This document shows positions 6,314 to 28,655 of a DNA stretch of 64,000 bases, in pieces. The stretch lies in the IMG/VR virus record IMGVR_UViG_3300028584_001240; one strand, written 5' to 3'. How positions within the stretch are numbered: the stretch's first letter is position 1; each line of letters opens with the position of its first letter. Below the pieces are notes generated by a model. The model worked only from the letters and a program-made list of their open reading frames with translations. It had not been told where the DNA came from and searched no databases. The DNA comes from a virus. Taxonomy: Duplodnaviria > Heunggongvirae > Uroviricota > Caudoviricetes. Made by a program: the position numbers and the translations under genes.

Positions 6314-7498
6314 TCAAGGTTTGAATTTTGGCTTCTTTGCTTGAACAGGAGCCGCCATCAACTTAACATCAATCACATTCAACCCTTTTTTACGGAAGCC
6401 TTCAATTACACGGTCAGTATCATCATAAACAGCTACAACACGTTCCAGTCCAATATATTTTGAAATCCAAGAAGGCTTAATGACATAATCGGGAACTCGG
6501 TTTTCTGGGCTACGCAATTTGATACGGTCATAACAAACACCATAATCTTCCATAGATTTAATTGTTTTGTCCATGATTCTATCTACTCGCCCACTCATCA
6601 ACCAAATTTCGAAACCTTTAGCACGATATTCTTTGGTCAAGTCAATAATGTGTTGAATAGGTGTATCCAAGTGACACAAGTCAAAATAGTTATCCCAATC
6701 TTTCACATCACGGTATTGAGCACGATGTTTCTCATCCAGCAAAGTACCATCAATATCGAATACAACCACGGGTGGCAAGATGATTTCTTTTTTACAATCG
6801 AAGACTTCACGCACACCTTGATAATCAGTTGCATACAATTCATGCTTTTCAACTTTACGAACAGTTTCTTTCAAGTAAGTGCCAAAATCAGCCCACATTT
6901 TTTGCAATGCGTCTACAGGTTCGCCTTCTTTACGCTGCAAGTAACCAGTCAACTCTGGGTAGTATTCAGCCACTGAGCTTTTAGTAAACAGTTCCACATT
7001 ATCTTTCAACAATGCCATAGTTTGACCTAACTGAAAGGCAAAGAACTTGTAGGTTTCAACCAACGACGATTTTTGATAGTCAGCCACATCACGCAAGTCA
7101 ATGCCAGCCAATACATCTAACTTGAACAACATATCAGCAGATTGCAATGCTTTTTTGACTTCTTCACGCTTTTCAGTGCGAGAATGATAAGACAGCAAAC
7201 CACGAACAGTACGAATCATTTTCAATGCATAAGAACGTGGTAAAGCTGCAGTGATTGGGTTCGCGGCGTCTTGTTTGTGCAGAGCATAGGTTGCCAGAAT
7301 AGAGTTGTTACACTCATCCACAGTACCTTTATAGCACCAGTTAACAACACCGTCTTTAACGCTCAAAAGATTGCCGTTCACTTCTTTGTAAGAATCGCAA
7401 AGCTTCTTGGCTTCTTGCATAGTAAGTGGTTCTGGAATGATGATATAGGCATCAATGTCCAAAGAATCTTCTGAGCCGTGTTTGATAACTGGATACAT
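6314..7498 (-). CDS. Nucleotidyltransferase-like domain fused to PNKP-type HAD phosphatase
   Basis: N-terminal HGSEDSLDID (hGS...DxD); C-terminal VFDIDGT, SGR, K and YDD HAD motifs as in the T4 PNK 3'-phosphatase; ends KKPKFKP. Confidence 0.75.
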   Translation of the reverse strand: MYPVIKHGSEDSLDIDAYIIIPEPLTMQEAKKLCDSYKEVNGNLLSVKDGVVNWCYKGTVDECNNSILATYALHKQDAANPITAALPRSYALKMIRTVRGLLSYHSRTEKREEVKKALQSADMLFKLDVLAGIDLRDVADYQKSSLVETYKFFAFQLGQTMALLKDNVELFTKSSVAEYYPELTGYLQRKEGEPVDALQKMWADFGTYLKETVRKVEKHELYATDYQGVREVFDCKKEIILPPVVVFDIDGTLLDEKHRAQYRDVKDWDNYFDLCHLDTPIQHIIDLTKEYRAKGFEIWLMSGRVDRIMDKTIKSMEDYGVCYDRIKLRSPENRVPDYVIKPSWISKYIGLERVVAVYDDTDRVIEGFRKKGLNVIDVKLMAAPVQAKKPKFKP

Positions 7499-7584: not shown

Positions 7585-8292
7585 TTAAAACATCATCATT
7601 TCAAGTAGTGTTATTTCTTCGGGCATCAAACTTTTATTCAAATTAATGCGGTCATAACCAACCAGTCGAGCCAAATCAGGATACAGTCGTTTTAAAGCAT
7701 GGAATTCAATAAAGCTAGTCGGAAATTTATCGTTATAATAGGTCACCTGCAATGGAGACATTGATTTATTATTAAACCGATATTGAGTAGCGTGCCATTT
7801 TTGTTTTTCGAACAGATAATCTTTAGTCGTTTTGGTTGATTTAACAGTGGTCAGATAAGCGTATTCTTTGCCATCAATAATAGTGATCGGTGGTGTTTTA
7901 CCATAGATTGCATAGTTTTCAATATAGGGTTTACCACTGCCATGATAACTAATGAACGCTGGCTGACTATTTTCTCTATGATAAACTTTCTTGGACGTTG
8001 AGAAAAAATGTTTATTAAACATATAAGCAATACCTGTACCCAACTTATCTGGATTACTGAATGAGATATAAATGGTTGTATCTGTCGATTTATCAATAAA
8101 ACGATAAGTGACTCCATTAAGCGTAATAGCATGATCAACACTTTCTCTACCTTGTAGTTTTTCAAAACCAAAAGATTCAATAATACTGATTTCTGAAGTA
8201 GCATCTTTGGAATTGGTCAATCGAACAGTATCCTTGTCAGAATAAACAATTGCCATGAATTCTTCTTTGGTTGTAAAATTTAAAAACGCCAT
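7585..8292 (-). CDS. Hypothetical protein with C-terminal LxxMxxF motif
   Basis: Ends LLEMMMF; weak resemblance to 170..853. Confidence 0.7.
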   Translation of the reverse strand: MAFLNFTTKEEFMAIVYSDKDTVRLTNSKDATSEISIIESFGFEKLQGRESVDHAITLNGVTYRFIDKSTDTTIYISFSNPDKLGTGIAYMFNKHFFSTSKKVYHRENSQPAFISYHGSGKPYIENYAIYGKTPPITIIDGKEYAYLTTVKSTKTTKDYLFEKQKWHATQYRFNNKSMSPLQVTYYNDKFPTSFIEFHALKRLYPDLARLVGYDRINLNKSLMPEEITLLEMMMF

Positions 8293-8380
8293 AAATATTC
8301 TCCACATTATTGGTGTCTCATAATATCACATGATAAGAAGATATGCTATCAAAAAATCATAAAAAAAAGCATAAATATGC

Positions 8381-8409
8381 TTGACTTAAGTGCTTTATGA
8401 GCGTATTAT
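8381..8409 (+). promoter_or_regulatory. sigma70-type promoter
   Basis: TTGACT-17-TATTAT with upstream A-tract, ahead of RBS AGGAG and ATG 8448. Confidence 0.75.
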
Positions 8410-8447
8410 TTGATGTTACATTAAATCAATTAGGAGAAATATTGAAC

Positions 8448-10844
8448 ATGATAAATACAAACACAATTCTTTTGGCAAACAATTTTGTGCAAGCAACTCG
8501 CGTTGTTTCCGGCACACTTGCGAGCAAAGAAGAACTGTCTACTGTATTTGCCAACATGGTTCACTATGGCTGGACTCCATCCAGAGAAGTCATCGAAAAC
8601 CTTCAAACCTATTCAGCACAAGATCTGGAATCATTCTGGTTGGCTGTGGAACCTGCTTTCAAAGAGGTGACTGCTTCTGATCGTGATATGGATTCGGCTG
8701 TTGTTTACAAAAACTTCCCGAAAGAAGTGCTTGATAAATCTGAAGCTGAATACTGGTTCTGCCAAATTTTGATGTATGTTGGTTTTAGCCCAGACTATTT
8801 CGCTGATGACAAAGTAGAGCGTCCAGCTCTCAAAGATCAAAAGAACTTGAAAGTTCTGCACCTTGAAAAAGAAGACACCTTGAACAACATCAAGGAAACA
8901 CTTGTTCAATCTAAAAACCGTTGGAATGATCAACAAAAGGATTTCGCTAGCCAGCTATTTACTAACCACACACAAGAAACTATCAATTTGAGCGATTTCG
9001 GCTTCAAAGAGAACGGTATCGTAATTATCAAGCAAGCGATTGAAAGCGGTCTTAATTTCGCCATTAAAGATGCTACCGATGTCATGCGTTTGGCTGCAGC
9101 AATGTCTGATGCGGATGTTTCACTTCGCACCAAAGTAAAATTCAAAAAATTCACTCGTAAAGAGCGTAAAGCTTTGTTGTCTTTGTTGAACAAGTCTAAT
9201 AACTTGGCTGAAGATGTGGCTATGCGTCAACAAGACTGGAAGAAATTTATGTTCCAGCTTCACCCAAAAGATTACAACTTCCCGAAAGTAACGGCTGTCT
9301 ATGGCACTTTGTGCAATGGTGAGCTTAAAAGCTTCAACGCCAAGGTTGAAAACAAAGTGTTGACCAAAGATGACACAGTGTTTGATATGCTTTCAAACCG
9401 TCAAGGTGACTTGATGCGTCGTTTCCACAAGCTTTACGAAGTATTTGGTGAGAAAGCTGTGGATGCGATTGTGGCTAAGATTGATCAATTTGATACGTTG
9501 CAACTGTTGAAGTTGAAAAAGTATGTGACCACTATTAATGACCGTCAGCACTTCATCTATGCCCCAAAAGGTAACTGGACAAATGCTCACTTCATCCAAC
9601 GTGTAGAGAAAGATACATCCGTTGAAAAAGCATTCGTAGCACCTGTGAAAGCCGAAAAGATTAAAAAAGTAAAAGCAATTGATGTTGTGGAACCAGCCAT
9701 TATCGAAGTGGTGAAAACTGAGGTTGAGCAACCGGCTGTTACAGAAGTTAAATCTGGCATTCCATCCAGTGACGCCTTAGCGATGTTGATTGAAAAGTTC
9801 AAAGGTAATCTTGAGCCTGCTCCTGAGCCTATGTTTATTCCTTCACCAAAGCCTGTGTATCAACGTTATGTAGCACCTGAGAAAAAAGTCTACAAGCCGA
9901 TTAAAAATGGTAAAGTCATGTTGTCTGCTGAAGCGGTAGGAACTATCGTAACTGCTGTCAATACAGAGATTGCTAAACGTATGGAAGTTCTCTTTCCAAA
10001 AGGCGTTATGCTGGATAAAGCTACAAGCAAGATTAAGCTTCAAACCAATGATCAAAACCTTGCGGCTAATTATGGTCGTGGTACCGTGTTTGATATACCT
10101 GCAAATATCAATTTCATTCGAAGTGCAAGTTACTGGCAGATGAAAGATTCGGGTAACATCTGGTTTGATAATAGCTGGAACTTCTTTGATGAAAACTGGG
10201 GTTCAAAAGGTGCCTGCTGCTGGAATGCTGCTTATTCTTATACAGGTCAAGATACCTATTTGACACAAGAGGCTGGGGCTGTGTTCTCAGGTGATCCTGT
10301 TATCAGTCAAGATACGCAAGGTCGTGGTTGCCAGATGATTGACTTGTATATCGACAAACTGGTTAATTCTGGTGTGCGTTATGCTGTTTGGAATATCTTG
10401 TCATTCAATAGCCAACCTTTCGATGCGGCTGATGATTTAGTCGGTACCTTGCAAATGGGTGAAAACGCTGAGGAAGGTAATTTATACGAACCGAGTCGTG
10501 CTCAATTTGTATTTGAAGTAAAAGGTAAGAATTTGACCAAGTATGTGGCTTACCTCGACTTGGTTGAAAGGAAAGTAGTTTACATGGATGCTAACTTGTA
10601 TGGTCATGTGCATTCAGCCGAAACAAACGGTTCACTGCTTTCTGAGAGAATGCCAGCATTTGTTGAGTATTTGAACACATTGCCATCAGTGTTTGATTTG
10701 TTTGAAAGTGTTAAAGTCGGTGAAACCCCGATATTGAACGACGATACAGATGTAACAATTACCACTGATAGTGCTTATGTATTTACCAGTAGAAATACAG
10801 AAAACAGTTACGAAAAGATTGAAATCAACTCACTGCTAAAGTGA
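8448..10844 (+). CDS. Large helical protein with C-terminal TerD-like domain
   Basis: C-terminal region FSGDP...GCQMIDLYIDKL...GVRYAVWNILSF resembles TerD (HSGD...E.I.IDL..L); low-complexity P/E/K/V linker near aa 400-500; start refined to ATG 8448. Confidence 0.65.
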   Translation: MINTNTILLANNFVQATRVVSGTLASKEELSTVFANMVHYGWTPSREVIENLQTYSAQDLESFWLAVEPAFKEVTASDRDMDSAVVYKNFPKEVLDKSEAEYWFCQILMYVGFSPDYFADDKVERPALKDQKNLKVLHLEKEDTLNNIKETLVQSKNRWNDQQKDFASQLFTNHTQETINLSDFGFKENGIVIIKQAIESGLNFAIKDATDVMRLAAAMSDADVSLRTKVKFKKFTRKERKALLSLLNKSNNLAEDVAMRQQDWKKFMFQLHPKDYNFPKVTAVYGTLCNGELKSFNAKVENKVLTKDDTVFDMLSNRQGDLMRRFHKLYEVFGEKAVDAIVAKIDQFDTLQLLKLKKYVTTINDRQHFIYAPKGNWTNAHFIQRVEKDTSVEKAFVAPVKAEKIKKVKAIDVVEPAIIEVVKTEVEQPAVTEVKSGIPSSDALAMLIEKFKGNLEPAPEPMFIPSPKPVYQRYVAPEKKVYKPIKNGKVMLSAEAVGTIVTAVNTEIAKRMEVLFPKGVMLDKATSKIKLQTNDQNLAANYGRGTVFDIPANINFIRSASYWQMKDSGNIWFDNSWNFFDENWGSKGACCWNAAYSYTGQDTYLTQEAGAVFSGDPVISQDTQGRGCQMIDLYIDKLVNSGVRYAVWNILSFNSQPFDAADDLVGTLQMGENAEEGNLYEPSRAQFVFEVKGKNLTKYVAYLDLVERKVVYMDANLYGHVHSAETNGSLLSERMPAFVEYLNTLPSVFDLFESVKVGETPILNDDTDVTITTDSAYVFTSRNTENSYEKIEINSLLK

Positions 10845-12920: not shown

Positions 12921-13682
12921 CTAAATAGTTTGCATTTCAATCAATTGGATTTCTCTTCGAACGTCTATAATGGGTTTATTCAATTTTTTACCAAGGTAGA
13001 GTACAAATAATTGACGTATTGATAACATATCAAATGAAGAATCATCAGTAAAATACCAACTAGATGAATCTTTGCTATCAAAGCTAAATGAAACCTTATT
13101 AATATCAATCCAAATAGATACACCAGCACTGAGAGAAAGAAGTTGAATTTCATTTGCCCCATTATTTAAAAAATTTAAGTCAAAGAAGGAAAATTTAACA
13201 CTTTCTTCAAAAAGTGAACGCTTAGAAAACACTTCTTTTAATTTACCCTCATAAAATAAGGCTTGATCAACGATATTAATGTTACTAACCATCGTATGCT
13301 GACTTAGATCTGTATAATTAATCCGCTGACCATGCCTGATATTAATATCAATCAGATGATCCAGTGTTCTAGCAATACGTTGAAAATTAAAATCTTCCCG
13401 AAGATCTATACTAAACATGACTAGACCGTTAATGAAGGGGTAAAGAGATTTAAATTCAAAATCAAGTATATGCCCTGTAATAGATACATTGAATATAACT
13501 TTGAAATCCTCCCCATAAACCATAACATCATCAACAATCATATTAATATATTGAATCATTTTAGAATGGTCAAAAGAAGTATGATTACCTTTAATAATGG
13601 AGATATATTTTAACTCACTAAGGTTTAACTCATAACTTCGAGCACTTTCAATTTCTATTTTTTTATTAGAATTTTCTACCAT
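12921..13682 (-). CDS. DD/YPF-repeat family paralog (1 unit), C-terminal LxxMxxI
   Basis: MIVDDVM...LYPF; ends REIQLIEMQTI. Confidence 0.75.
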   Translation of the reverse strand: MVENSNKKIEIESARSYELNLSELKYISIIKGNHTSFDHSKMIQYINMIVDDVMVYGEDFKVIFNVSITGHILDFEFKSLYPFINGLVMFSIDLREDFNFQRIARTLDHLIDINIRHGQRINYTDLSQHTMVSNINIVDQALFYEGKLKEVFSKRSLFEESVKFSFFDLNFLNNGANEIQLLSLSAGVSIWIDINKVSFSFDSKDSSSWYFTDDSSFDMLSIRQLFVLYLGKKLNKPIIDVRREIQLIEMQTI

Positions 13683-14710
13683 TAAATATGCTCCATTTCA
13701 ATTAGTTGTATTTCTCTTTTCAAGTCTAATATTTTTTTATCCAATTTCTTTTCAAGGTAAATTATAAACATTTTTCGAATGATAGAAACATCAGATGCCT
13801 CATCATCTGTAAATGTCCAAGAGAATTTATCATAATCACTAAATCCAATGAAAATATAATTAGACTCAATTTCAATAGTCATGTCTGTTTCTGATGAGTG
13901 AAGTGTTAGTTCTAAGAAACTCCTATTTTTCACTTCAAAATCAAAGAAAGAAAATTTTTCTTTCGTCTTGTAAATTGAACGATTAAGATAAACATCCTTT
14001 AATCTGCCATCATAACCCAGAGCCTTTTCAATAATATCAATACGGTTTAAAAACTTTTTTCCAACATCTAAGCTTACATAATAATTAACACGTTCAAGAT
14101 AAATATGATGTTTTCTAAGTTCATCCAATTGACTTGATATGTTATTAATATCAACTGGCTTGTTTAAATCGAACTTAAGTTCAATATAAGAACCAACAAA
14201 AGGATATGATTTCGTCATTTCAATAGTAAACATATTATTATTAACGCTAAGACTAAACTCAGTTTCAAAGTGCTCACCAAAAACCAATATGTCATCAACA
14301 ATCATACTTAAATATGCTGATATTTTCTGATTGGCTTCAATGCCAACAAATAAAACTTTTTGATATCTTAATTCATCTATCTCACATAAATATCGGGCAT
14401 TGTTCATCACGAGATCTTCTTCATTAAGATTTTCTAATACATTATTTTCATTGAATGGCTCATCAAGGTTAAAAGTTGCCATGAATGGAAATTTATCACA
14501 CAAATGGATGGTCATGAGATTAAGATCAATCGTAATGCAATACTGAATTTTGACATCTTTTATCTGTAACAGAGCCGAATCTACCAGAAGGTTAAGATAT
14601 CGTCCAATGTTTTCATTGTAATTGTTAGTATCATCAAAAAATTTCAAATTTTTTAACTCTGATATTAGTCCGTTAACCTTAGTTCCGCTTAAAATATACT
14701 TATCTGGCAT
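13682..14710 (-). CDS. DD/YPF-repeat family paralog (2 units), C-terminal LxxMxxI
   Basis: LLVDSAL...FPF and MIVDDIL...SYPF; ends REIQLIEMEHI; 1-nt stop/start overlap. Confidence 0.75.
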   Translation of the reverse strand: MPDKYILSGTKVNGLISELKNLKFFDDTNNYNENIGRYLNLLVDSALLQIKDVKIQYCITIDLNLMTIHLCDKFPFMATFNLDEPFNENNVLENLNEEDLVMNNARYLCEIDELRYQKVLFVGIEANQKISAYLSMIVDDILVFGEHFETEFSLSVNNNMFTIEMTKSYPFVGSYIELKFDLNKPVDINNISSQLDELRKHHIYLERVNYYVSLDVGKKFLNRIDIIEKALGYDGRLKDVYLNRSIYKTKEKFSFFDFEVKNRSFLELTLHSSETDMTIEIESNYIFIGFSDYDKFSWTFTDDEASDVSIIRKMFIIYLEKKLDKKILDLKREIQLIEMEHI

Positions 14711-15774
14711 TAAATAGACTCCATTTCAAGTAATTTTATTTCTCTTGCTAAATCTGTTATTTTATATCCAAGCCATTTTTCAAGATAAATAATAAAAAAT
14801 TGACTAACCATTAACGTATCATGTTCTATACAGTCCGTTCTGATCCATGTAAAACTATCTTTTTTACCAAAAAGAAAAGTAAGGCTAGATTGGCTAATCT
14901 GAATATCTAAAGCGAGGTCACCTTTAGATACCATTTCTAACGATAAGTGATGTCTTTTATGATCAATAGAAAGAAATGAAATTTCATTAATCGGTTTTAC
15001 AATAGAATTATTATAGTAAAGACTTGTTAATTGATTGCCAATCCCTAAAACATTTTCTAAAATTTTAATAGTTTCTAAAAATTTTAAACCATCTTTGATT
15101 AAAACAAAAAAGTTAGTTTTTGGATCTTTTAATTGTTCTTGAGCATAAACATTCAATTGTTCAACTATCAAAAGACTATTAAATTCTTGTTCAAAATCAA
15201 TTGTAAAACTAAGAAAGTCTGTCTCAAAAAAAGGATAAGCATTAGACAATAGCAAATCACACCTTGTTTCATGAAATGCAATATTATAATAAATTTTATT
15301 ATCTTCAACAAATGGCAAAACATCATCGGCAATAAATGATAAATACTCAGATAGCTTTTTATTCAATGCTTCAGTAATAAACAATACTTGCGTTTGCCTA
15401 AATTCATTTAAGGTGCCATCTCTCCCATTGCCACTCAGTACTAAATTAGTATTGTTCAAATAATCCAGCACACAAGACTTATTAAATGGCTGAGACAAAT
15501 CAAATCTTCCTATAAACGGATAAGCAGTACCAATACTTATATCGACAATATCATCATTAATATCCATCCTAATTTCTATTTTGAAGTCCGGTTTATTGTT
15601 AGACAAAGCATTATCAACTAACAAGCTTAAATACCTATTTAATAATGTTTTTTTATGTTCATCTTTTAATTTTTTAAATGTGGTTCTTTTTAAGTCTGTC
15701 ATCGAACACATGTAAAAATTATCGGCATTAAGCCAATGGGTATATTCAGTCATATCAAATGGTTTCCATTTCAA
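14710..15774 (-). CDS. DD/YPF-repeat family paralog (2 units), C-terminal LxxMxxI
   Basis: LLVDNAL...AYPF and FIADDVL...AYPF; ends REIKLLEMESI. Confidence 0.75.
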   Translation of the reverse strand: MKWKPFDMTEYTHWLNADNFYMCSMTDLKRTTFKKLKDEHKKTLLNRYLSLLVDNALSNNKPDFKIEIRMDINDDIVDISIGTAYPFIGRFDLSQPFNKSCVLDYLNNTNLVLSGNGRDGTLNEFRQTQVLFITEALNKKLSEYLSFIADDVLPFVEDNKIYYNIAFHETRCDLLLSNAYPFFETDFLSFTIDFEQEFNSLLIVEQLNVYAQEQLKDPKTNFFVLIKDGLKFLETIKILENVLGIGNQLTSLYYNNSIVKPINEISFLSIDHKRHHLSLEMVSKGDLALDIQISQSSLTFLFGKKDSFTWIRTDCIEHDTLMVSQFFIIYLEKWLGYKITDLAREIKLLEMESI

Positions 15775-16594
15775 TCAACAAAAGTTCACTTTTCAAATCA
15801 TGAATATCGTGATCTTTCTTTTTTTCAATAAACATTTTAATAAACATCTGCAACATATTAAAATCACGTTCAAAATTAGTCGTTGTTGTAAAAGTAAATG
15901 TATTATCCTTATCAAACGTAAATTTCACACCATCATTTTCAATTCTAATATCAAGGTAAGCGGAATTAACAAAAAGATCAGGTTCTCTTGTTCCCTGCAT
16001 CGTGAAGGTAAAGGATGATGAATCAATTCTTATATCATTGCCTGTGTATATGTTGTTATCATGAAAAGTCTTAACCAGTTGATTTTCAAAATAGAGTGCC
16101 TTATCAACAAGGCGAACATTACGCATCAGCCCACAACCATACTCAATAGTCATAGGTGGATAATCACTCAACATCAATTCATGATCATAACCAAAACTAC
16201 AGTCAATGTATTTCACAATATCATCTTTGTCATCCCAATGTTCCCTATCATCAGTGTCAAGATTAGAAAGTGCTCTCGCTAAACTTTGAATACTTGCTTT
16301 TTCTTTCAAATCAAAACAAAGAAAAATACAATCATCATAATAAGGATATGATTTTTCTAACATGATACTCATAAACATGTCATTAGGACTCATTGAAATT
16401 TCGACATCTAACTCAAAATCACCATTATAAATTAAAAGATCGTCAACAAGAAGATCAAAATAGGCTAACATCCTATTATTTTTTTGCTTGCTGATTCCTT
16501 CAATATTTACTCGACGTAAATGGGTTAACATAACAGTATAGTTATCATGATTGGAAAGCATAATAAGTTCGTCATCTTCTTTCGATTTAGCCAT
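15755..16594 (-). CDS. DD/YPF-repeat family paralog, C-terminal LxxMxxI
   Basis: LLVDDLL...SYPY; ends LLIEMETI. Confidence 0.75.
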   Translation of the reverse strand: MAKSKEDDELIMLSNHDNYTVMLTHLRRVNIEGISKQKNNRMLAYFDLLVDDLLIYNGDFELDVEISMSPNDMFMSIMLEKSYPYYDDCIFLCFDLKEKASIQSLARALSNLDTDDREHWDDKDDIVKYIDCSFGYDHELMLSDYPPMTIEYGCGLMRNVRLVDKALYFENQLVKTFHDNNIYTGNDIRIDSSSFTFTMQGTREPDLFVNSAYLDIRIENDGVKFTFDKDNTFTFTTTTNFERDFNMLQMFIKMFIEKKKDHDIHDLKSELLLIEMETI

Positions 16595-16719
16595 GTAAAA
16601 AGCCTCTAAAATAATGGCTTATTGTAGCATATCAAAACAATTAAATATACTTAATTTTTAATGAAGTCATAAAATTTATCGTAAAAATAAAGTATAAGTA
16701 ATACCGACAATAATATCAG

Positions 16720-17562
16720 TTATATGGCTATCATTTCCTGAAGTTTAATCCAGCGGGGTAAGTCATCATGGTCTGTATCATGTTGAATGTTGTAAAAACT
16801 TAAAAAGAATTGAGTAAATTTTTTAATATTAAAGTCTAGCGGATGTTTTTTATTCAAATTAAAATCCATCGAATCATATAAATATTCAAATCTAATCGTG
16901 TTATTGATAACTTTAATATAGAAATCATGATTAGTGAGTGTCAACTCAATATTATTTGAATTAAAGTTTCTAAACTCAAATATTGAGAACTCATCTTCTT
17001 CTGAAAATGGCTTTACATAGTAAATATTATTTTTAACCCGTTTGTACAGTGCTCCATCATAGCCTAGTGCCTGATCGATAATATCAAACACATAAAAAGT
17101 ATCCAATGCATTGACGTGAATAAACTGTTCCATTAAACCAGTTTTCGATTCTCTCTCATCATCATCATTAAATTTATACCAACCATCAGCTTTTAATTCA
17201 TCAAGGAATGTCGCCAACAATGTTGGCGTAATTAAATCTACTGGTAGAGTTAGATTTAAAAGAAAATAGACTCGATTCAATGATTTATTTATCTTAATAG
17301 GATGAGCATTGTTTAAAAATTCTAAAAAAGGATAAGAATAGTCTAGACATATAGAAAATACATCATCAACAATTTCTATAAAAGCATAAGTTTTCACATC
17401 ATCACGCATACACAAAATATCATCAGAAAGAATCGTTAAAAAACGAGAAATTTTTAAATTGTGTTCATCCTGAACGCCGATGATTCCAGCATTTTTTAAA
17501 TCAGATAACTTTATTAATTGCCTACCAGTTTTCAACTGATAAGGCAGATTTTCATTGAACAT
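16720..17562 (-). CDS. DD/YPF-repeat family paralog, C-terminal LxxMxxI
   Basis: ILSDDIL...SYPF; ends KLQEMIAI. Confidence 0.75.
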   Translation of the reverse strand: MFNENLPYQLKTGRQLIKLSDLKNAGIIGVQDEHNLKISRFLTILSDDILCMRDDVKTYAFIEIVDDVFSICLDYSYPFLEFLNNAHPIKINKSLNRVYFLLNLTLPVDLITPTLLATFLDELKADGWYKFNDDDERESKTGLMEQFIHVNALDTFYVFDIIDQALGYDGALYKRVKNNIYYVKPFSEEDEFSIFEFRNFNSNNIELTLTNHDFYIKVINNTIRFEYLYDSMDFNLNKKHPLDFNIKKFTQFFLSFYNIQHDTDHDDLPRWIKLQEMIAI

Positions 17563-17623
17563 CGAACCTCTCCATTATGTAAACACTTTAACAGTTTAAA
17601 ATCATTAAATCAAGAAAAAACGC

Positions 17624-17652
17624 TTGACTTTTTAGTTCGAATGTCATACTAT
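17624..17652 (+). promoter_or_regulatory. sigma70 promoter of ncRNA locus A
   Basis: TTGACT (17624-29), 17 nt, TACTAT (17647-52); A-tract upstream. Confidence 0.8.
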
Positions 17653-17658
17653 ATACAA

Positions 17659-17844
17659 ACGGTAAGGCTATGAAGTTGGTTCCTTCTAACTCATTCTAAG
17701 ATTCACCATTTCGATTTCCATACCAACTATTTCACCGAGGCTAGCATTAAGGTTCCTTCTAACTTAACTTGTAAATATTAAACTGATTAAACCTTGTCAA
17801 TTCCCTCAAATAAAACAAACTTGTAGCGATACAGGTTTTTTTTT
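17659..17844 (+). ncRNA. Novel structured ncRNA locus A (two tandem hairpin units)
   Basis: No ORF; AGGCTA-N7-GGTTCCTTCTAAC at 17665 and 17738 (73-nt period); bounded by a promoter and a GNRA-loop terminator; 5' end estimated. Confidence 0.75.
17817..17844 (+). terminator. Intrinsic terminator of ncRNA A
   Basis: aaacttgta-gcga-tacaggttt plus T-run. Confidence 0.8.
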
Positions 17845-17875
17845 GCCTAAAATAAATCAACAAAAAAAATGAAGA

Positions 17876-18646
17876 CTAAATAGCCTTCATTCTAATCAAT
17901 AGCAATAAATTTTTCATAGTGTCAGCTTCTGTCATTAACTCCATATTATACATATCTATAATAAGTTTTGCTAAGTTATCTTTTTTCTCCTGATAACTCC
18001 GTCTACTCTGCTTGGATATAGTCAAAATAGCGGAACCACCCATAATAGCAAAAGAAAATTCATCAGGTGAGATGCTGACCAGAAGATCTCCAAATTGAAT
18101 TTTTAACAGAGGGTGTTCACCACAATGTGCAAAAGAATTAAATGAATCGAATTTGACTTCTCGTGCCCCTAATGTAAAATCAATGTCTTGATAAAACGAA
18201 TAAAATTTGCCATCAAATTCAAATAAGTTGTCAATAAATCTAATATTTTCAAAGAAAGACCTAAAATCAACAAGAGTCAAATAACTTCCATAGGTTCGAT
18301 ATCTATCATTTTGATAAATTAAATCGTTCACATAATGATTAAGAGCCTTATTTTTAATTAAAGGTTCACATAATTCAAGATTAAAAGATGATTGTATTAA
18401 AAATGGATAAGAAGCGTCCATTTCAATCAAGAAACCTGATTGACGAATATAAAAATTCATACTGGTTTTAAAGTCTTCTGAGATTGACAATATATCGTTC
18501 GCTAACGCACGAACAGCTTCAATTAAAAACTGTTTGTCAATGACTGATAGTAGTTCACTGGCAAATGTCGTATCAACCTCAAATTTAGCCAAATCGCTAA
18601 TGTTAAATTGAACAGCCAGTAGAGGTGAATCATTTGTTAAAAGCAT
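17876..18646 (-). CDS. DD/YPF-repeat family paralog, C-terminal LxxMxxI
   Basis: ALANDIL...SYPF; ends LLIRMKAI. Confidence 0.75.
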   Translation of the reverse strand: MLLTNDSPLLAVQFNISDLAKFEVDTTFASELLSVIDKQFLIEAVRALANDILSISEDFKTSMNFYIRQSGFLIEMDASYPFLIQSSFNLELCEPLIKNKALNHYVNDLIYQNDRYRTYGSYLTLVDFRSFFENIRFIDNLFEFDGKFYSFYQDIDFTLGAREVKFDSFNSFAHCGEHPLLKIQFGDLLVSISPDEFSFAIMGGSAILTISKQSRRSYQEKKDNLAKLIIDMYNMELMTEADTMKNLLLLIRMKAI

Positions 18647-18662
18647 ATAATCACCTTATACG

Positions 18663-19058
18663 TTAGATGTATATCATGTTATGCAGGTCAATGAACTGCT
18701 CAATATTATCAAATTTTTGTTCTGAATTCATATTAATCAAAATAAGCAGTAACTGTTTAAATTGCTCTATTGTTGATGACGGTGATGGCTTAAATTGAAC
18801 ACCAAATCCTCCATAAAAACAAAAAACACTATTATTGTCAACACTTAATGTGAAATCATTTGCATAAAGATGAAAATTATAAATATCAGGATCTAGGCTA
18901 AAACTAAAACCATTATAGCCATCTTCACGATTAGTCTCATAATCACGTTGCATATCAAAGCAAATTTTATGGATGACTCCATTAGCTTTAAACAATTGGT
19001 CAACAATCATAATATTCTTTAAGACTGCTCTCTTATCAAATTCTTCGTAGTCGCTCAA
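18663..19058 (-). CDS. Short paralog (C-terminal half of DD/YPF family), C-terminal LxxMxxI
   Basis: NIMIVDQLF matches the family NI..VD.AL segment; TTG start after GAAGGA; ends DLHNMIYI. Confidence 0.65.
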   Translation of the reverse strand: MSDYEEFDKRAVLKNIMIVDQLFKANGVIHKICFDMQRDYETNREDGYNGFSFSLDPDIYNFHLYANDFTLSVDNNSVFCFYGGFGVQFKPSPSSTIEQFKQLLLILINMNSEQKFDNIEQFIDLHNMIYI

Positions 19059-19133
19059 AATAGTAATCCTTCAATTAAGTTTTTTAATAAAAATGATTTT
19101 AGCATAATTTAAAAGAAAAAACAAACAAAAGTA

Positions 19134-19161
19134 TTGACTTTTAAAAATAATATGCTAATAT
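19134..19161 (+). promoter_or_regulatory. sigma70 promoter of ncRNA locus B
   Basis: TTGACT (19134-39), 16 nt, extended -10 TGcTAATAT. Confidence 0.75.
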
Positions 19162-19167
19162 TGTATT

Positions 19168-19347
19168 TAGATAAGGCTATGAAGCAGGTTCCTTCTAAAC
19201 ATTCTTTTAAATGACGATTTACCTATTCGCTTTCCATATCTACTTATTCAAGGCTATGATTACGGTTCCTTCTAACTCTATTGGCTGATATACCTGATCG
19301 CTTCCCTTAAACTAAAAAGACCTAACAGCAATGTCAGGTCTTTTTTT
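19168..19347 (+). ncRNA. Novel structured ncRNA locus B (two tandem hairpin units)
   Basis: AGGCTA-N7-GGTTCCTTCTAA at 19174 and 19251 (77-nt period); same architecture as locus A; 5' end estimated. Confidence 0.75.
19314..19347 (+). terminator. Intrinsic (probably bidirectional) terminator of ncRNA B
   Basis: aaaaagacctaaca-gcaa-tgtcaggtc plus T7. Confidence 0.8.
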
Positions 19348-19372
19348 ATAGCTCAAATAAAAGCACTTTAAA

Positions 19373-20323
19373 CTAAATCGTGCTCATCCTGAATAATTTA
19401 ACATAGTCATCCATTTCTTTATCGTTTAAAGATGTGTAATATACGCCACACTCTGATAAAAATAGTTCAAAATCTGAACATGGATATTCTTTCAAAACGA
19501 CATCAATTGTTTTTTCAATTAACTCACCGACTGAATCACTATTCTCAATGGTGTTAACAGTAATCGGATTTTTTCTCTTATTTTTTTCGTAAATATAAGC
19601 TGCTGAATGATTCGGCTCTTTAAACACATGTTTGTGACTCACTGAATTATTCAACACAATTTCAAAATCATAAGTATTCACTAACAAACGAACAGTGTCC
19701 GCATTAATAGACTGATATATTAAAAAGCTGTATAAGTTATAATATTTTCTTAAATAAGCTATTTTATCAAAATATTTTTTATATTCATCACTGCCAAAAT
19801 ATTGATTAGTGTATAATCCAAAAGAAAACAAGATTTCACCATTCACAATTTTATAAAAAGATTTATCCTTATATTTTTGTTCTTTCAAACACACATACAC
19901 GATATTGATATTCTGATCACCATTATAATCAATAACTTTTTCAGACAGTCTATCGAAATAGACAATACAGTCTTTGCCTTTTGTGTTGATTTCATTAATA
20001 AAAAAATAAAAATGTTCTGGTATTAATGTCATGAAGGGCAATCCATCAAAAATCTTGAAGATATCTGAATTATAAGAGTGATCACCGACATACGTCAAAA
20101 CGACAACATCATTAACGTATACAGTAAAATAGCGAGACGTTGAAACACTAATGGGTTCAAAATCGTCAAAGGCTCGAATAATGATAGATTGATCGTGATT
20201 TGAACAATAATAATCATCATAGATTTTTTTCACATAAAAGTTTCGCTCACTATTTGTATAAACAATAGGGAGTTCTGACATATTTAAGTAACCTTTAATC
20301 TCTTCAATCGTAAGCATAATCAC
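19373..20323 (-). CDS. Hypothetical protein with C-terminal LxxMxxI motif
   Basis: 316 aa; ends KLFRMSTI. Confidence 0.7.
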   Translation of the reverse strand: MIMLTIEEIKGYLNMSELPIVYTNSERNFYVKKIYDDYYCSNHDQSIIIRAFDDFEPISVSTSRYFTVYVNDVVVLTYVGDHSYNSDIFKIFDGLPFMTLIPEHFYFFINEINTKGKDCIVYFDRLSEKVIDYNGDQNINIVYVCLKEQKYKDKSFYKIVNGEILFSFGLYTNQYFGSDEYKKYFDKIAYLRKYYNLYSFLIYQSINADTVRLLVNTYDFEIVLNNSVSHKHVFKEPNHSAAYIYEKNKRKNPITVNTIENSDSVGELIEKTIDVVLKEYPCSDFELFLSECGVYYTSLNDKEMDDYVKLFRMSTI

Positions 20324-23621: not shown

Positions 23622-23681
23622 TTTCTTGTTTAATTTTTGTGGATAGGTTATAATAGAAGTATACCAATTAGGAGATATTTT

Positions 23682-24248
23682 ATGGCTTTTGAAAACGAAA
23701 GAAAATTCTTATTAAAGAATGATAACTGGAAAAAGGGTGTCTCTAACAAAGATGATATTCATCAAGGTTATATTGATTTGAGCAAAGTTAAAATCTCTGT
23801 CAAACCTAACTGGCTTATCTTAGATTTTGGCTTTACTATCCTGCGTAAACCCATTACACCAGAAGATACTGCCCAATTGATTGAACACTTAGATAAGCCA
23901 GAAAAAGTGCTGCGTATCCGAGATAAATCTGGCAAATTTAAGATTACGCTTAAAATTGACATTGGTGTTGTAGACAGCAAAGTGGAAGTAGAGCCAAGCC
24001 TATCGAAAGAAGAATATGAGATGTTATTGCCATTGTGCGATAGTTTCATTTCGAAAATTCGTAGCTATGTAAAAGTAGGTGACTACGTTTACGAAGTCGA
24101 TGTTTTCACTGGCAAACATGCACATCTTGAACCTATTGCTGAAGTTGAATACAAAACACCGGGTGAAGTTATTGAAATACCAGAGTGGGCAGGAACAGAA
24201 GTGACGGGGGTTGACAAGTATTACAACGCCAACCTTGCAAAACTGTAA
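23682..24248 (+). CDS. CYTH (triphosphate tunnel metalloenzyme) domain protein
   Basis: ENERKFL, LRIR, ITLK, ISKIR, YEVDVF, AEVE, EVTG..KYYNANL; start refined to ATG 23682. Confidence 0.88.
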   Translation: MAFENERKFLLKNDNWKKGVSNKDDIHQGYIDLSKVKISVKPNWLILDFGFTILRKPITPEDTAQLIEHLDKPEKVLRIRDKSGKFKITLKIDIGVVDSKVEVEPSLSKEEYEMLLPLCDSFISKIRSYVKVGDYVYEVDVFTGKHAHLEPIAEVEYKTPGEVIEIPEWAGTEVTGVDKYYNANLAKL

Positions 24249-26687: not shown

Positions 26688-28583
26688 TTACTTTTGTTCT
26701 TCAAACTCAGCGTCAATATAATCATTATCTTGGCTATTGCCTTGATTTTGACCTTGTTGCTGTTGAGCTTGATCAGGCTGGTATTGCTTGGAAGTAATAC
26801 CATGAAGAACTTTTTCAAGGCTGGCATAGCGAGAATCAAGTTCTGCCTTAGATCCTGATTTAATCAAACCGGCTAAATCGGAAATAGCGTTTTCAAGATT
26901 CAATCTATCAGTGCTATCCAAGTTTGGCTCATTCATCACTTTACGAGCTTCGTGAACCAAATGGTCAGCCTTGTTACGGCTATCAGCTAATGCAGCAAAC
27001 TTCTCATCATCTGATTTGTTCTTTTCAGCGTCATTAATCATTTGTTGAATTTCAGCTTCACTCAAACCAGAGTTGGCTTTAATAACAACAGATTGAGACT
27101 TACCAGTATTCTTGTCCTTGGCAGACACATTCAAAATGCCGTTCGCATCAATATCAAAAGTAATCTCAATTTGAGGTTGACCTTTCGGTGCAGGTGCAAT
27201 ATCTCTCAAGTCAAAACGACCCAAAGATTTATTTCCAGACGCTTGTTTACGTTCACCTTGCAATACATGAACAGTTACTGCAGTTTGATTGTCGTCCGCT
27301 GTTGAACACATTTCTGTCTTCTTCGTTGGAATAGTAGTGTTCTTAGGAATCAATGGAGTAAATACACCACCCATTGTTTCAATACCTAACGTCAATGGCG
27401 TCACGTCTAACAACAATACGTCAGTCACAGCACCTGTGATAACACCTGCTTGAATAGCCGCACCAATAGCCACAGCTTCATCAGGGTTTACATCTTTACG
27501 TGGTTCTTTACCAAAAAATTCGGTAACACGTTTTTGCACAAGTGGCATACGAGTCTGACCACCAACCAAGATAACTTCATCAATAGCTGACAATTCAATA
27601 CCTGCATCTTTTAGAGCTGTTTTACATGGAAGAATAGTTCTTTCCACCAACTCTTCTACCAAACCTTCGAACTTAGCTCTGGTGATAATAACGTTCAAGT
27701 GCTTTGGACCAGAACTATCAGCCGTTACATAAGGTAAGTTCACATCAGTTTGTTGAGTTGAGGACAACTCAATTTTAGCTTTCTCAGCCGCATCTCTAAT
27801 ACGTTGCATAGCGAGTGGGTCTTGTTTAATATCAATACCACTTTCTTTCTTAAACTCATTGACAATATATTCAATGAGTACGTTGTCAAAGTCTTCACCA
27901 CCAAGGAATGTATCACCATTGGTTGCAAGCACTTCGAACTGAGATTCACCATCAACACCTGCAATCTCAATAACGGATACGTCAAAAGTACCACCACCCA
28001 AGTCATAAACTATGATAGTGCTATCTTTCTTAAACTTATCCATGCCATAAGCTAATGCAGCCGCTGTAGGTTCGTTAATAATACGTTTTACATCTAAACC
28101 AGCGATACGACCCGCATCTTTTGTGGCTTGTCTTTGACTATCATTGAAGTAAGCAGGCACAGTAATAACAGCTTCTGTTACTGGTTCACCCAAATAGTCT
28201 TCTGCAGTCTTCTTCATTTTCATCAAAATTTCGGCTGAGATTTGTTGTGGTGAAGTCTTCTTGCCTTTAACTTCTACCCATGCATCACCATTGTCAGCCT
28301 TCACAATTTTATAAGGGACAAGCTTGATGTCTTTTTGTACAGCCTCTTCATCAAATTTACGACCAATAAGTCGTTTGATGGCATGGAACGTTTGTGTTGG
28401 GTTGGTGATAGATTGTCTTTTTGCTGGTTGCCCAACCAAAGTTTCACCTTCTTTGCTATAAGAGACGATAGATGGAGTAGTTCTTGCTCCTTCTGCATTC
28501 TCAATTACTTTTTGTTTACCATTTTCGAATATAGATACACAAGAATTTGTTGTACCCAAGTCAATACCAATTACTTTACTCAT
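26688..28583 (-). CDS. dnaK: Molecular chaperone DnaK (Hsp70)
   Basis: [41 protein letters not shown] linker, DAEFEE tail; start refined to MSKVIG. Confidence 0.98.
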
Positions 28584-28655
28584 TTTTAATACCCCCATTC
28601 GGCAGATTTAGTTTAGTTTATTGTAAAGAACTCCGAAGACATTCTTCAATCAATA

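Follow-up and report, generated by a model that had tools for sequence, protein, structure and literature searches.

The 64,000-nt stretch analysed here (referred to as the window) belongs to the IMG/VR virus record IMGVR_UViG_3300028584_001240, a member of the Caudoviricetes. It carries two small RNA (sRNA) genes on its plus strand and, on the same strand, a gene for an 815-aa protein that is the predicted partner of these RNAs (8397..10844). Each sRNA gene consists of a promoter, two hairpin units and a terminator. In sRNA gene 1 (about 17660-17844), a sigma70-type promoter at 17624..17652 (TTGACT-17-TACTAT), whose -10 element ends about 7-8 nt 5' of the first unit, is followed by RNA unit 1 (17660..17725), RNA unit 2 (17733..17811) and an intrinsic terminator at 17819..17844, made up of a 7-bp stem (17819-17836) with a GCGA loop and a U-run to 17844. 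In sRNA gene 2 (19168-19347), the sigma70-type promoter at 19134..19161 (TTGACT-16-TAATAT with an extended -10 TG) ends about 7 nt 5' of RNA unit 3 (19169..19241), which is followed by RNA unit 4 (19246..19312) and an intrinsic terminator at 19314..19347, an inverted repeat with 93% complementarity between its arms (19314-19327/19332-19345), a GCAA loop and a U-run to 19347. Both terminators were read directly from the sequence, and a terminator scan missed them because of the few G-C pairs in gene 1 or one mismatch. The units are 66-79 nt long, and the open reading frames (ORFs) flanking both loci all lie on the opposite strand. With their own promoters and terminators, the two loci are therefore free-standing transcription units of about 180 nt. 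A preliminary description of the sequence had proposed a sigma70 promoter, two units and a GNRA-loop terminator for each locus, and these sites could be located at both.

The units had been recognized by the motif AGGCTA-N7-GGTTCCTTCTAA. It starts at 17665, 17738, 19174 and 19251 on the plus strand, exactly where the preliminary description had placed it and nowhere else in the window; no fifth copy was found with up to three mismatches allowed. Dinucleotide shuffles contained on average 0.04 matches, and none of 100 shuffles reached four. The 3' element ACC-N3-TC(G/A)(A/C)TT(T/C)CC follows in all four units, and the closing stems (P1) and inner helices (P2) form as proposed, with the weakest inner helix in the unit at 17738. 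Unit 1 folds into P1 (GGUAAGG/CCAUACC), an internal loop, P2 and an apical loop that opens with UUCCUUCUAA. With the covariance model R1 described below, units 1 to 4 score 61.3 bits (E 5e-13), 53.1 bits (E 6e-11), 60.5 bits (E 8.5e-13) and 54.9 bits (E 2e-11), unit 2 having the most degenerate P2. No further credible R1 copy was found in the window, and ARAGORN detected no tRNA there.

A weak hint of expression comes from contigs of RNA/cDNA libraries (wastewater and pig samples), which mainly cover the two sRNA loci. A 151-nt cDNA-library record, an assembled contig with unreliable ends, begins at 19168, the predicted start of gene 2. An adapter-flanked cDNA insert stops at 19340 within the terminator of the same gene, which is weak evidence. 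All of these records are assembled contigs; their depth, strand and ends are not trustworthy, and the uncovered parts are uninformative.

For identification of related RNAs, pattern scans for the unit were applied to IMG/VR, in which many matches to the loose pattern are due to chance. Scoring of the closing stem and the inner helix separated about 57 distinct candidate units on large viral contigs. They share a common layout, in which P1 ends in GG/CC, an asymmetric internal loop places C(U/C)A opposite (C/A)UUU, P2 covaries, and the apical region begins on its 5' side with the single-stranded 8-mer UUCCUUCU. In a seed alignment of 30 sequences (A2), with a structure of P1 (7 bp) and P2 (10 bp), 82.7% of the cells are paired, compared with 41-52% after a shift of the 3' partners by 1-3 columns, and 148 cells are changed on both sides versus 52 in shuffles. 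The covariance model R1, built from A2, found 83 matches in 50 viral loci, often in tandem arrays; multi-unit arrays are present in loci L036, L104 and L049, for example.

An alignment of 82 sequences from phages and bacteria (A5) shows the same structure. Here 87.7% of the cells are paired versus 41-53% after sliding, and the covariation score is 0.749 compared with 0.196 in shuffles. UUCCUUCU is invariant in all 82 sequences and single-stranded in every fold made. Invariance, or close to it, is also seen for the P1-closing GG/CC, for C9 and A11 in the 5' bulge C(U/C)A and for the 3' bulge (C/A)UUU. The GC content of the family spans 19% to 69% across phyla. The basal stem was found in all aligned members. 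What follows UUCCUUCU in the apex varies: the window units have a short loop there, most bacteria have a small hairpin, and some phages have a long insert. Thus, the four units of the window are members of a large and widespread structured-RNA family and more than a local repeat. The prediction of covarying hairpin RNA genes with invariant unpaired nucleotides is supported by the alignment. The "pyrimidine-rich loop" of the preliminary description does not hold as a generic feature; it has to be replaced by the invariant UUCCUUCU at the start of the apex. By eye, AUGAUUA...CUGA in the second units could be taken for a box C/D-like element or a k-turn, an idea that was dropped since it fits one subtype only.

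Searches against known families gave no counterpart. A cmscan against Rfam 15 at gathering thresholds, the check proposed at the outset, returned nothing in the window and nothing on twelve bacterial or phage loci, while ten related viral loci gave tRNAs only; at E <= 10, only terminator-driven noise was seen on 17600-19400. Neither the region nor ORF 17876-18646 had a match in the GenBank phage collection by nucleotide or tblastn search. No account of this RNA or its motif was found in a literature search whose scope left out most subscription-journal papers, so that a prior description is possible. RNA annotation thereby gains a family of well over 100 members with unusually clean covariation, which current databases have missed.

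In addition, the arrangement of the RNAs was analysed in the relatives. The layout of promoter, units and terminator found in the window is the same in L002, a close relative represented by a 437-kb viral contig (estimated 98% complete) which has five units, namely two 2-unit genes and a singleton. In the Xanthomonas phages XacN1 and Xoo-sp13, a promoter is followed by a tRNA-like RNA ending in CCA, two or three units and a terminator, and only then by a protein gene. The promoter of a Mesorhizobium locus (L152; TTGACG-17-TATATA) ends 7 nt before P1, and the RNA has its own terminator before the ribosome-binding site of the protein gene. A cyanobacterial locus (L172) has two RNA copies downstream of the gene, each with a duplicated promoter, and in several phages units are found inside tRNA clusters. 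The RNAs of this family are genes of their own and not untranslated regions (UTRs).

Two observations were made alongside. The tRNA-like, CCA-ended RNAs of XacN1 (L121:5650-5735) and Xoo-sp13 (L122:5690-5768) are unannotated and were not called by the Rfam tRNA model at gathering. In L001 (2260-2428, minus strand), a dCMP-deaminase-like ORF is preceded by three units in a row, two of them degenerate, without an obvious terminator in between, and a cis-acting use is possible there.

Units were seen directly after or before homologues of the 815-aa ORF in L002 and L003, and the linkage was therefore tested systematically. XacN1 (385 kb) has three R1 matches in its whole genome, all of them directly 5' of ORF396, which is homologous to the 815-aa gene, and both matches in the genome of Xoo-sp13 (309 kb) lie immediately upstream of its homologue Xoosp13_353. 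The protein is also encoded in nine of ten further RNA-bearing phage records from IMG/VR, and the sole record without it is a fragment with an estimated completeness of 27%. Units adjoin the gene on both sides in two of these records (G004/L036 and G006/L104) and upstream in three (G007, G008, G010); they lie downstream in G013, where they abut the gene, and in G009, at a distance of about 1 kb. Altogether, units stand within a few hundred nucleotides of the gene in L002, L003, G004, G006, G007, G008, G010 and G013, and 10-22 kb away from it in G005 and G012.

For the reverse test, an alignment of the protein was scanned over one genome per prokaryotic species, which revealed 35 bacterial loci in Dactylosporangium, Virgisporangium, Myxococcota, cyanobacteria, rhizobia, Leptospiraceae, Chloroflexota and beta- and gammaproteobacteria. 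At 33 of them there is an R1 match (E <= 0.021), nearly always on the strand of the gene and separated from its start or stop by about 10-170 nt (about 300 nt at most). Among six further loci reached by identical-protein look-ups, three have a unit directly upstream of the gene. Chance cannot produce this pattern, and the companion proposal that the 815-aa helical and TerD protein is a possible partner of the RNA is strongly backed by it. RNA and gene are for the most part carried by mobile elements or large genomes, namely giant phages, Dot/Icm-type conjugative elements, actinomycetes and myxobacteria. RNA and partner gene are found together in Actinomycetota, Myxococcota, Cyanobacteria, Chloroflexota and Proteobacteria, in many of these bacteria on the chromosome or on an integrative and conjugative element (ICE).

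The partner protein belongs to a family with hundreds of members of about 700 aa, all annotated as hypothetical, in which no Pfam domain was found. An AlphaFold2 model made with 36 homologues (mean predicted local distance difference test score 84, predicted TM-score 0.82) has a helical N-domain at about residues 18-412, a disordered linker at 414-501 and a C-domain with a TerD fold at about 557-756. The TerD fold was assigned with a Foldseek probability of 1.0 and, by VIA, with a Z-score of 14.5 to 3ibz (root mean square deviation 2.7, 155 residues); the range over 3ibz, 2qng, 2qz7 and 2kxt is 12.5-14.5. The Pfam sequence model of TerD (PF02342) does not match the protein. The helical and TerD regions are homologous to NCBIfam NF041916 (E 1e-46 to 1e-56), below its curated cut-off, and fold matches in the AFDB belong to clusters named "ZorC EH domain", "TerD family", "RING finger family" and "DUF4132" (E 1e-20 to 1e-6).

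The N-domain alone has no Foldseek match in the PDB at E <= 0.001. In an exhaustive VIA search, Ro60 chains of three clusters are among its top 12 matches and are the only ones that align about 200 residues: Ro60 of Thermus phage phiLo (Z 5.7, 207 residues), Deinococcus Rsr (Z 5.1, 214 residues) and Xenopus Ro (Z 4.7, 185 residues). The full-length model gives Ro60 as the only match that spans both domains (315-334 residues, Z 4.9-5.1). Homology of the N-domain to Ro60 by sequence was rejected, as the partner protein has no Pfam TROVE match and a profile-profile comparison by hhalign with a Ro60 alignment from the carrier genomes gave a probability of 0.06%.

At 6314-7498 on the minus strand lies the gene of a 394-aa protein that has a HAD phosphatase domain of the PNKP type (PF25109, E 4e-17); together with an adjacent ORF of about 240 aa (7585-8307, minus strand), this gene stands head-to-head with the TerD-helical gene. 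This trio recurs in L185 and L191 and is not found in most other carriers. The HAD_PNKP fusion was considered as a universal third partner and rejected; it adjoins the gene in the window, L185, L191 and G001 and is mostly absent or distant elsewhere. A link to RNA-end repair is therefore only a lead.

The interpretation that we prefer starts from the observed RNA family, its structure, its own transcription signals and its linkage to the gene. Invariant loops on covarying stems had been taken from the outset to imply a protein-bound RNA, and the alignment supports this, the binding itself being a deduction. We consider it rather likely that the units are docking modules for the TerD-helical protein, two per transcript in the window, and that the complex acts in trans. 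Each locus would give one RNA of about 180 nt, from its own promoter to its own terminator, that delivers two modules. The scaffold of each unit, that is, the end of P1, the internal loop, P2 and UUCCUUCU, would be the docking site for the phage's own 815-aa protein, with which the RNA may form a ribonucleoprotein (RNP). The apical region would serve as a free adapter; it is short in the window, whereas bacteria have a small hairpin at this place and some phages a YrlA-type tRNA-like domain. If Ro60 and Y RNA are taken as a guide, the apex might tether the protein to other RNAs or to enzymes that handle tRNA, or gate its access to them. Both direct binding and a downstream activity of the complex are what we infer from this arrangement, and the RNA is best read as a partner of the TerD-helical protein that would be analogous to a Y RNA without being a member of the Y RNA family.

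Several observations weigh against this interpretation. In the window itself the RNAs are located 7-8.5 kb away from the 815-aa gene and do not adjoin it, and three of the six extra loci (L185, L191 and L192) have no RNA within 6-8 kb of the gene. Adjacency would also fit a regulation of the gene's mRNA or a shared, indirect function. The N-domain contains no RNA-binding family detectable by sequence, its Ro60 Z-scores of about 5 are within the noise range stated by VIA for helical repeats, and hhalign gives a probability of 0.06%. The cDNA contigs over the sRNA loci are assembled, and their libraries may contain DNA.

The broader proposal, a previously unrecognized and widespread class of RNPs, stands at about an even chance. 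It would combine a TerD/helical-repeat protein with a dedicated RNA of about 70 nt that docks via UUCCUUCU and the internal loop, would occur mainly in mobile elements and large-genome bacteria, and would resemble Ro60/Y RNA in its modularity, including the exchange of YrlA-type modules, with a protein that is unrelated or extremely diverged. TerD-domain proteins are abundant in bacteria and phages, and their molecular function is unclear. If the proposal is true, this would be the first RNA-linked function for them, and a conserved RNA beside one large TerD subfamily would offer a direct experimental handle on TerD function. It would also be a second, independent case of the Ro60/Y RNA design, a docking stem with an exchangeable tRNA-like or other adapter, and would suggest that this design is of general use in RNA surveillance or in the conflicts of mobile elements with their hosts. 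The hypothesis can already be put to the test, since both XacN1 and Xoo-sp13 are in culture, as are strains of several bacterial carriers.

A Csr-like operator and sponge might also explain the position of the units, which in most bacteria and many phages are only 10-170 nt away from the partner gene's start or stop. A hairpin in the 5' or 3' UTR would let the TerD-helical protein control its own mRNA, and free-standing multi-unit RNAs of giant phages would titrate the protein. The units immediately 5' of an ORF without an obvious terminator in L001 and L003 would fit this, and so would the multi-unit arrays in L036, L104 and L049. However, the position switches between upstream and downstream of the gene, terminators split RNA and gene in XacN1, Xoo-sp13 and L152, and the RNAs have promoters of their own. 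Moreover, in the window and several phages the units are kilobases away or in tRNA operons, and a tRNA-like apical domain has no role in an operator, which makes this explanation unlikely. A base-pairing sRNA is suggested by the same 8-mer that we assign to docking: UUCCUUCU, single-stranded in every fold and 100% conserved, could act as a seed for pairing to purine-rich targets (Shine-Dalgarno-like GGAGG/GAAGGAA) or to a universal RNA, the linked protein being a chaperone or effector. With one G-U pair, it is complementary to AGGAGGAA in the ribosome-binding site just downstream of the L001 unit, and a candidate for the universal target would be the GGAAGGAA stretch of the signal recognition particle RNA (4.5S RNA in E. 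coli). That an 8-mer is absolutely conserved across phyla, along with the internal loop and the geometry of the helices, is nevertheless more typical of recognition by a protein, and seeds of trans-acting sRNAs normally drift along with their targets; we regard this explanation as quite improbable.

A further possibility is that the RNA is a genuine Y RNA which binds a canonical Ro60/Rsr, the host's or a divergent one, the TerD-helical protein itself being a highly diverged Ro60. Bacterial YrlA Y RNAs have a permuted tRNA-like module, and the Ro60/Rsr motif, GNCGAA(N0-1)G in bacteria and GGUCCGA in metazoa, is located in the 5' strand of the basal stem (PMC4201824). An end-paired stem with a variable apex and the YrlA-like tRNA module of some relatives agree with such a membership, as do the three Ro60 clusters among the top 12 fold matches of the N-domain, which have the longest alignments (Z 4.7-5.7, 185-214 residues), and the alignment of the full-length model to Ro60 over both domains (Z 5.1, 315 residues). 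In four of five bacterial carriers, a TROVE protein is encoded elsewhere in the genome. However, the Rfam Y RNA families RF00019 and RF02553 have no match at gathering in the window or 22 related loci, and GNCGAA(N)G is absent from the 82-member consensus, which reads GGC(U/C)AU and then the variable P2. Pfam TROVE (PF05731) is absent from five related phage records, the hhalign probability is 0.06%, the second domain is TerD and not vWA, and the RNA is linked to the TerD-helical gene and not to TROVE genes. Because Rsr motif, Rfam match and TROVE neighbour are all missing, the RNAs of the window are not regarded as Y RNAs, and genuine membership appears very improbable.

A counter-defence decoy, finally, would soak up a host nuclease by mimicking the anticodon loop CUUCUAA of tRNA-Arg(UCU), a type III antitoxin or a CRISPR repeat; antitoxin mimic and RNA anti-CRISPR had been offered as alternatives in the preliminary description. 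The loop CUUCUAA of the phage copies is indeed identical to that anticodon loop, a true tRNA of L095 was caught by the same pattern, and units often lie within phage tRNA clusters. Decoy and tRNA-Arg mimic fail because bacteria conserve UUCCUUCU only, with varying next bases (UCC, UAU, UCG and others) and no local anticodon stem, and because the pair of RNA and partner gene is chromosomal or ICE-borne in many bacteria. This distribution, equally found in many bacterial phyla, largely refutes the decoy and leaves antitoxin mimic and anti-CRISPR unsupported. There are no PADLOC matches nearby and no toxin gene downstream on the same strand, and the similarity to a CRISPR direct repeat is noise (19 bits versus a gathering score of 50). 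A decoy is thus extremely improbable.

Apart from the RNA genes and their predicted partner, the window has a gene for a DnaK homologue, members of PHROG families without known function and numerous ORFs that lack a Pfam match. The full-length DnaK/Hsp70 homologue (26688-28598, minus strand) is about 70% identical to gammaproteobacterial DnaK by tblastn. A CYTH-domain protein is encoded at 23637-24248 on the plus strand, about 13 kb from the TerD-helical gene; CYTH proteins also occur a few kilobases from this gene in rhizobial Dot/Icm-type conjugative elements (L183:13881-14408 and L194:11485-11964), which may be coincidence. Downstream of the TerD-helical gene, an array of paralogous ORFs of about 260-280 aa without known domains occupies 12921-19058 on the opposite strand and is interleaved with the sRNA genes. 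A similar array of paralogues of the same size follows the TerD-helical gene in L191 (8384-13444), again on the opposite strand. The ORFs on the minus strand between 12921 and 21983 had no match of any credibility in Pfam, PADLOC or PHROG (one marginal PADLOC match, E 0.009) and showed no general link to the RNA family.

Among known systems, the stable RNAs C and D of phage T4 are likewise small stable RNAs of unknown function in or beside a phage tRNA cluster. In contrast to the present family, the tRNA region of T4 has no R1 match and lacks the motif, and rnaC/rnaD were therefore rejected as members of it. ToxI-like type III antitoxins are tandem repeats of about 36 nt upstream of, and co-transcribed with, the gene of an endoribonuclease toxin. 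This identity was rejected: the window units measure 66-79 nt, each transcript has two of them, and beyond its terminator come genes on the opposite strand, among which PADLOC and Pfam found no toxin match. An RNA anti-CRISPR or CRISPR repeat was likewise rejected (19.2 bits versus gathering 50, on the opposite strand); in a CRISPR repeat reading, the conserved 3' element would fall in the spacer. A mimic of tRNA-Arg(UCU) was rejected on the grounds given above, together with the ARAGORN result for the window.

On the protein side, the partner shares the TerD beta-sandwich fold of its C-domain with the TerD proteins of tellurite-resistance (ter) systems. Unlike these, its gene is not surrounded by a ter operon, and the TerD domain is fused to a helical domain of about 400 aa. 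A literature search, with most subscription-journal papers outside its scope, found no RNA partner for TerD proteins. The MXAN_6230/SCO0854 RING-domain family (NF041916) has the helical and TerD regions in common with the window protein, which lacks the RING domain. The names of this family and of the AFDB clusters are automatic annotations, and no function or RNA is known for these families.

The closest comparison is that with YrlA and Ro60. In both systems an RNA gene adjoins a gene whose product is a large helical-repeat protein that has a second globular domain. The RNA pairs its two ends into a stem with conserved, presumably protein-binding nucleotides, the apex is modular, and several copies per genome occur in bacteria and large phages. 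The Y RNA likeness suggested in the preliminary description is right in this respect, for the end-paired stem with a conserved site and the variable apex, and does not extend to membership of the Y RNA family. The family conserves GGC(U/C)A, UUCCUUCU and (C/A)UUUCC where YrlA has GNCGAA(N)G, the four units of the window are without tRNA-like domain, and the partner has no TROVE signature and a TerD fold where Ro60 has vWA. A canonical TROVE/Ro60 protein was also observed in four of five bacterial carriers (G014, G015, G016 and G018, corresponding to L162, L152, L168 and L148). The RNA adjoins the TerD-helical gene in these bacteria and the TROVE genes are located elsewhere in the genome, so that the two systems coexist and do not replace each other.

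The apex brings both systems together. In L036 (7192-7329), L035 (2139-2276), L097 (1479-1616) and one unit of L100, P1, P2 and UUCCUUCU are kept and carry an apical insert of about 90 nt, in which a T arm, a loop-closed acceptor-like stem and a D arm form a permuted tRNA-like domain. The insert of L036 (7217-7313) matches the whole Rfam YrlA model with 38.4 bits (E 2e-7 in a small search), compared with a gathering score of 69. The tRNA-like module is thus mounted on the basal stem of this family as well as on the Rsr-binding one of YrlA, which points to an exchange of modules between the family and bacterial Y RNAs. This shared module argues for a functional analogy, a docking stem that would present an adapter, and not for membership of the window RNAs among the Y RNAs.

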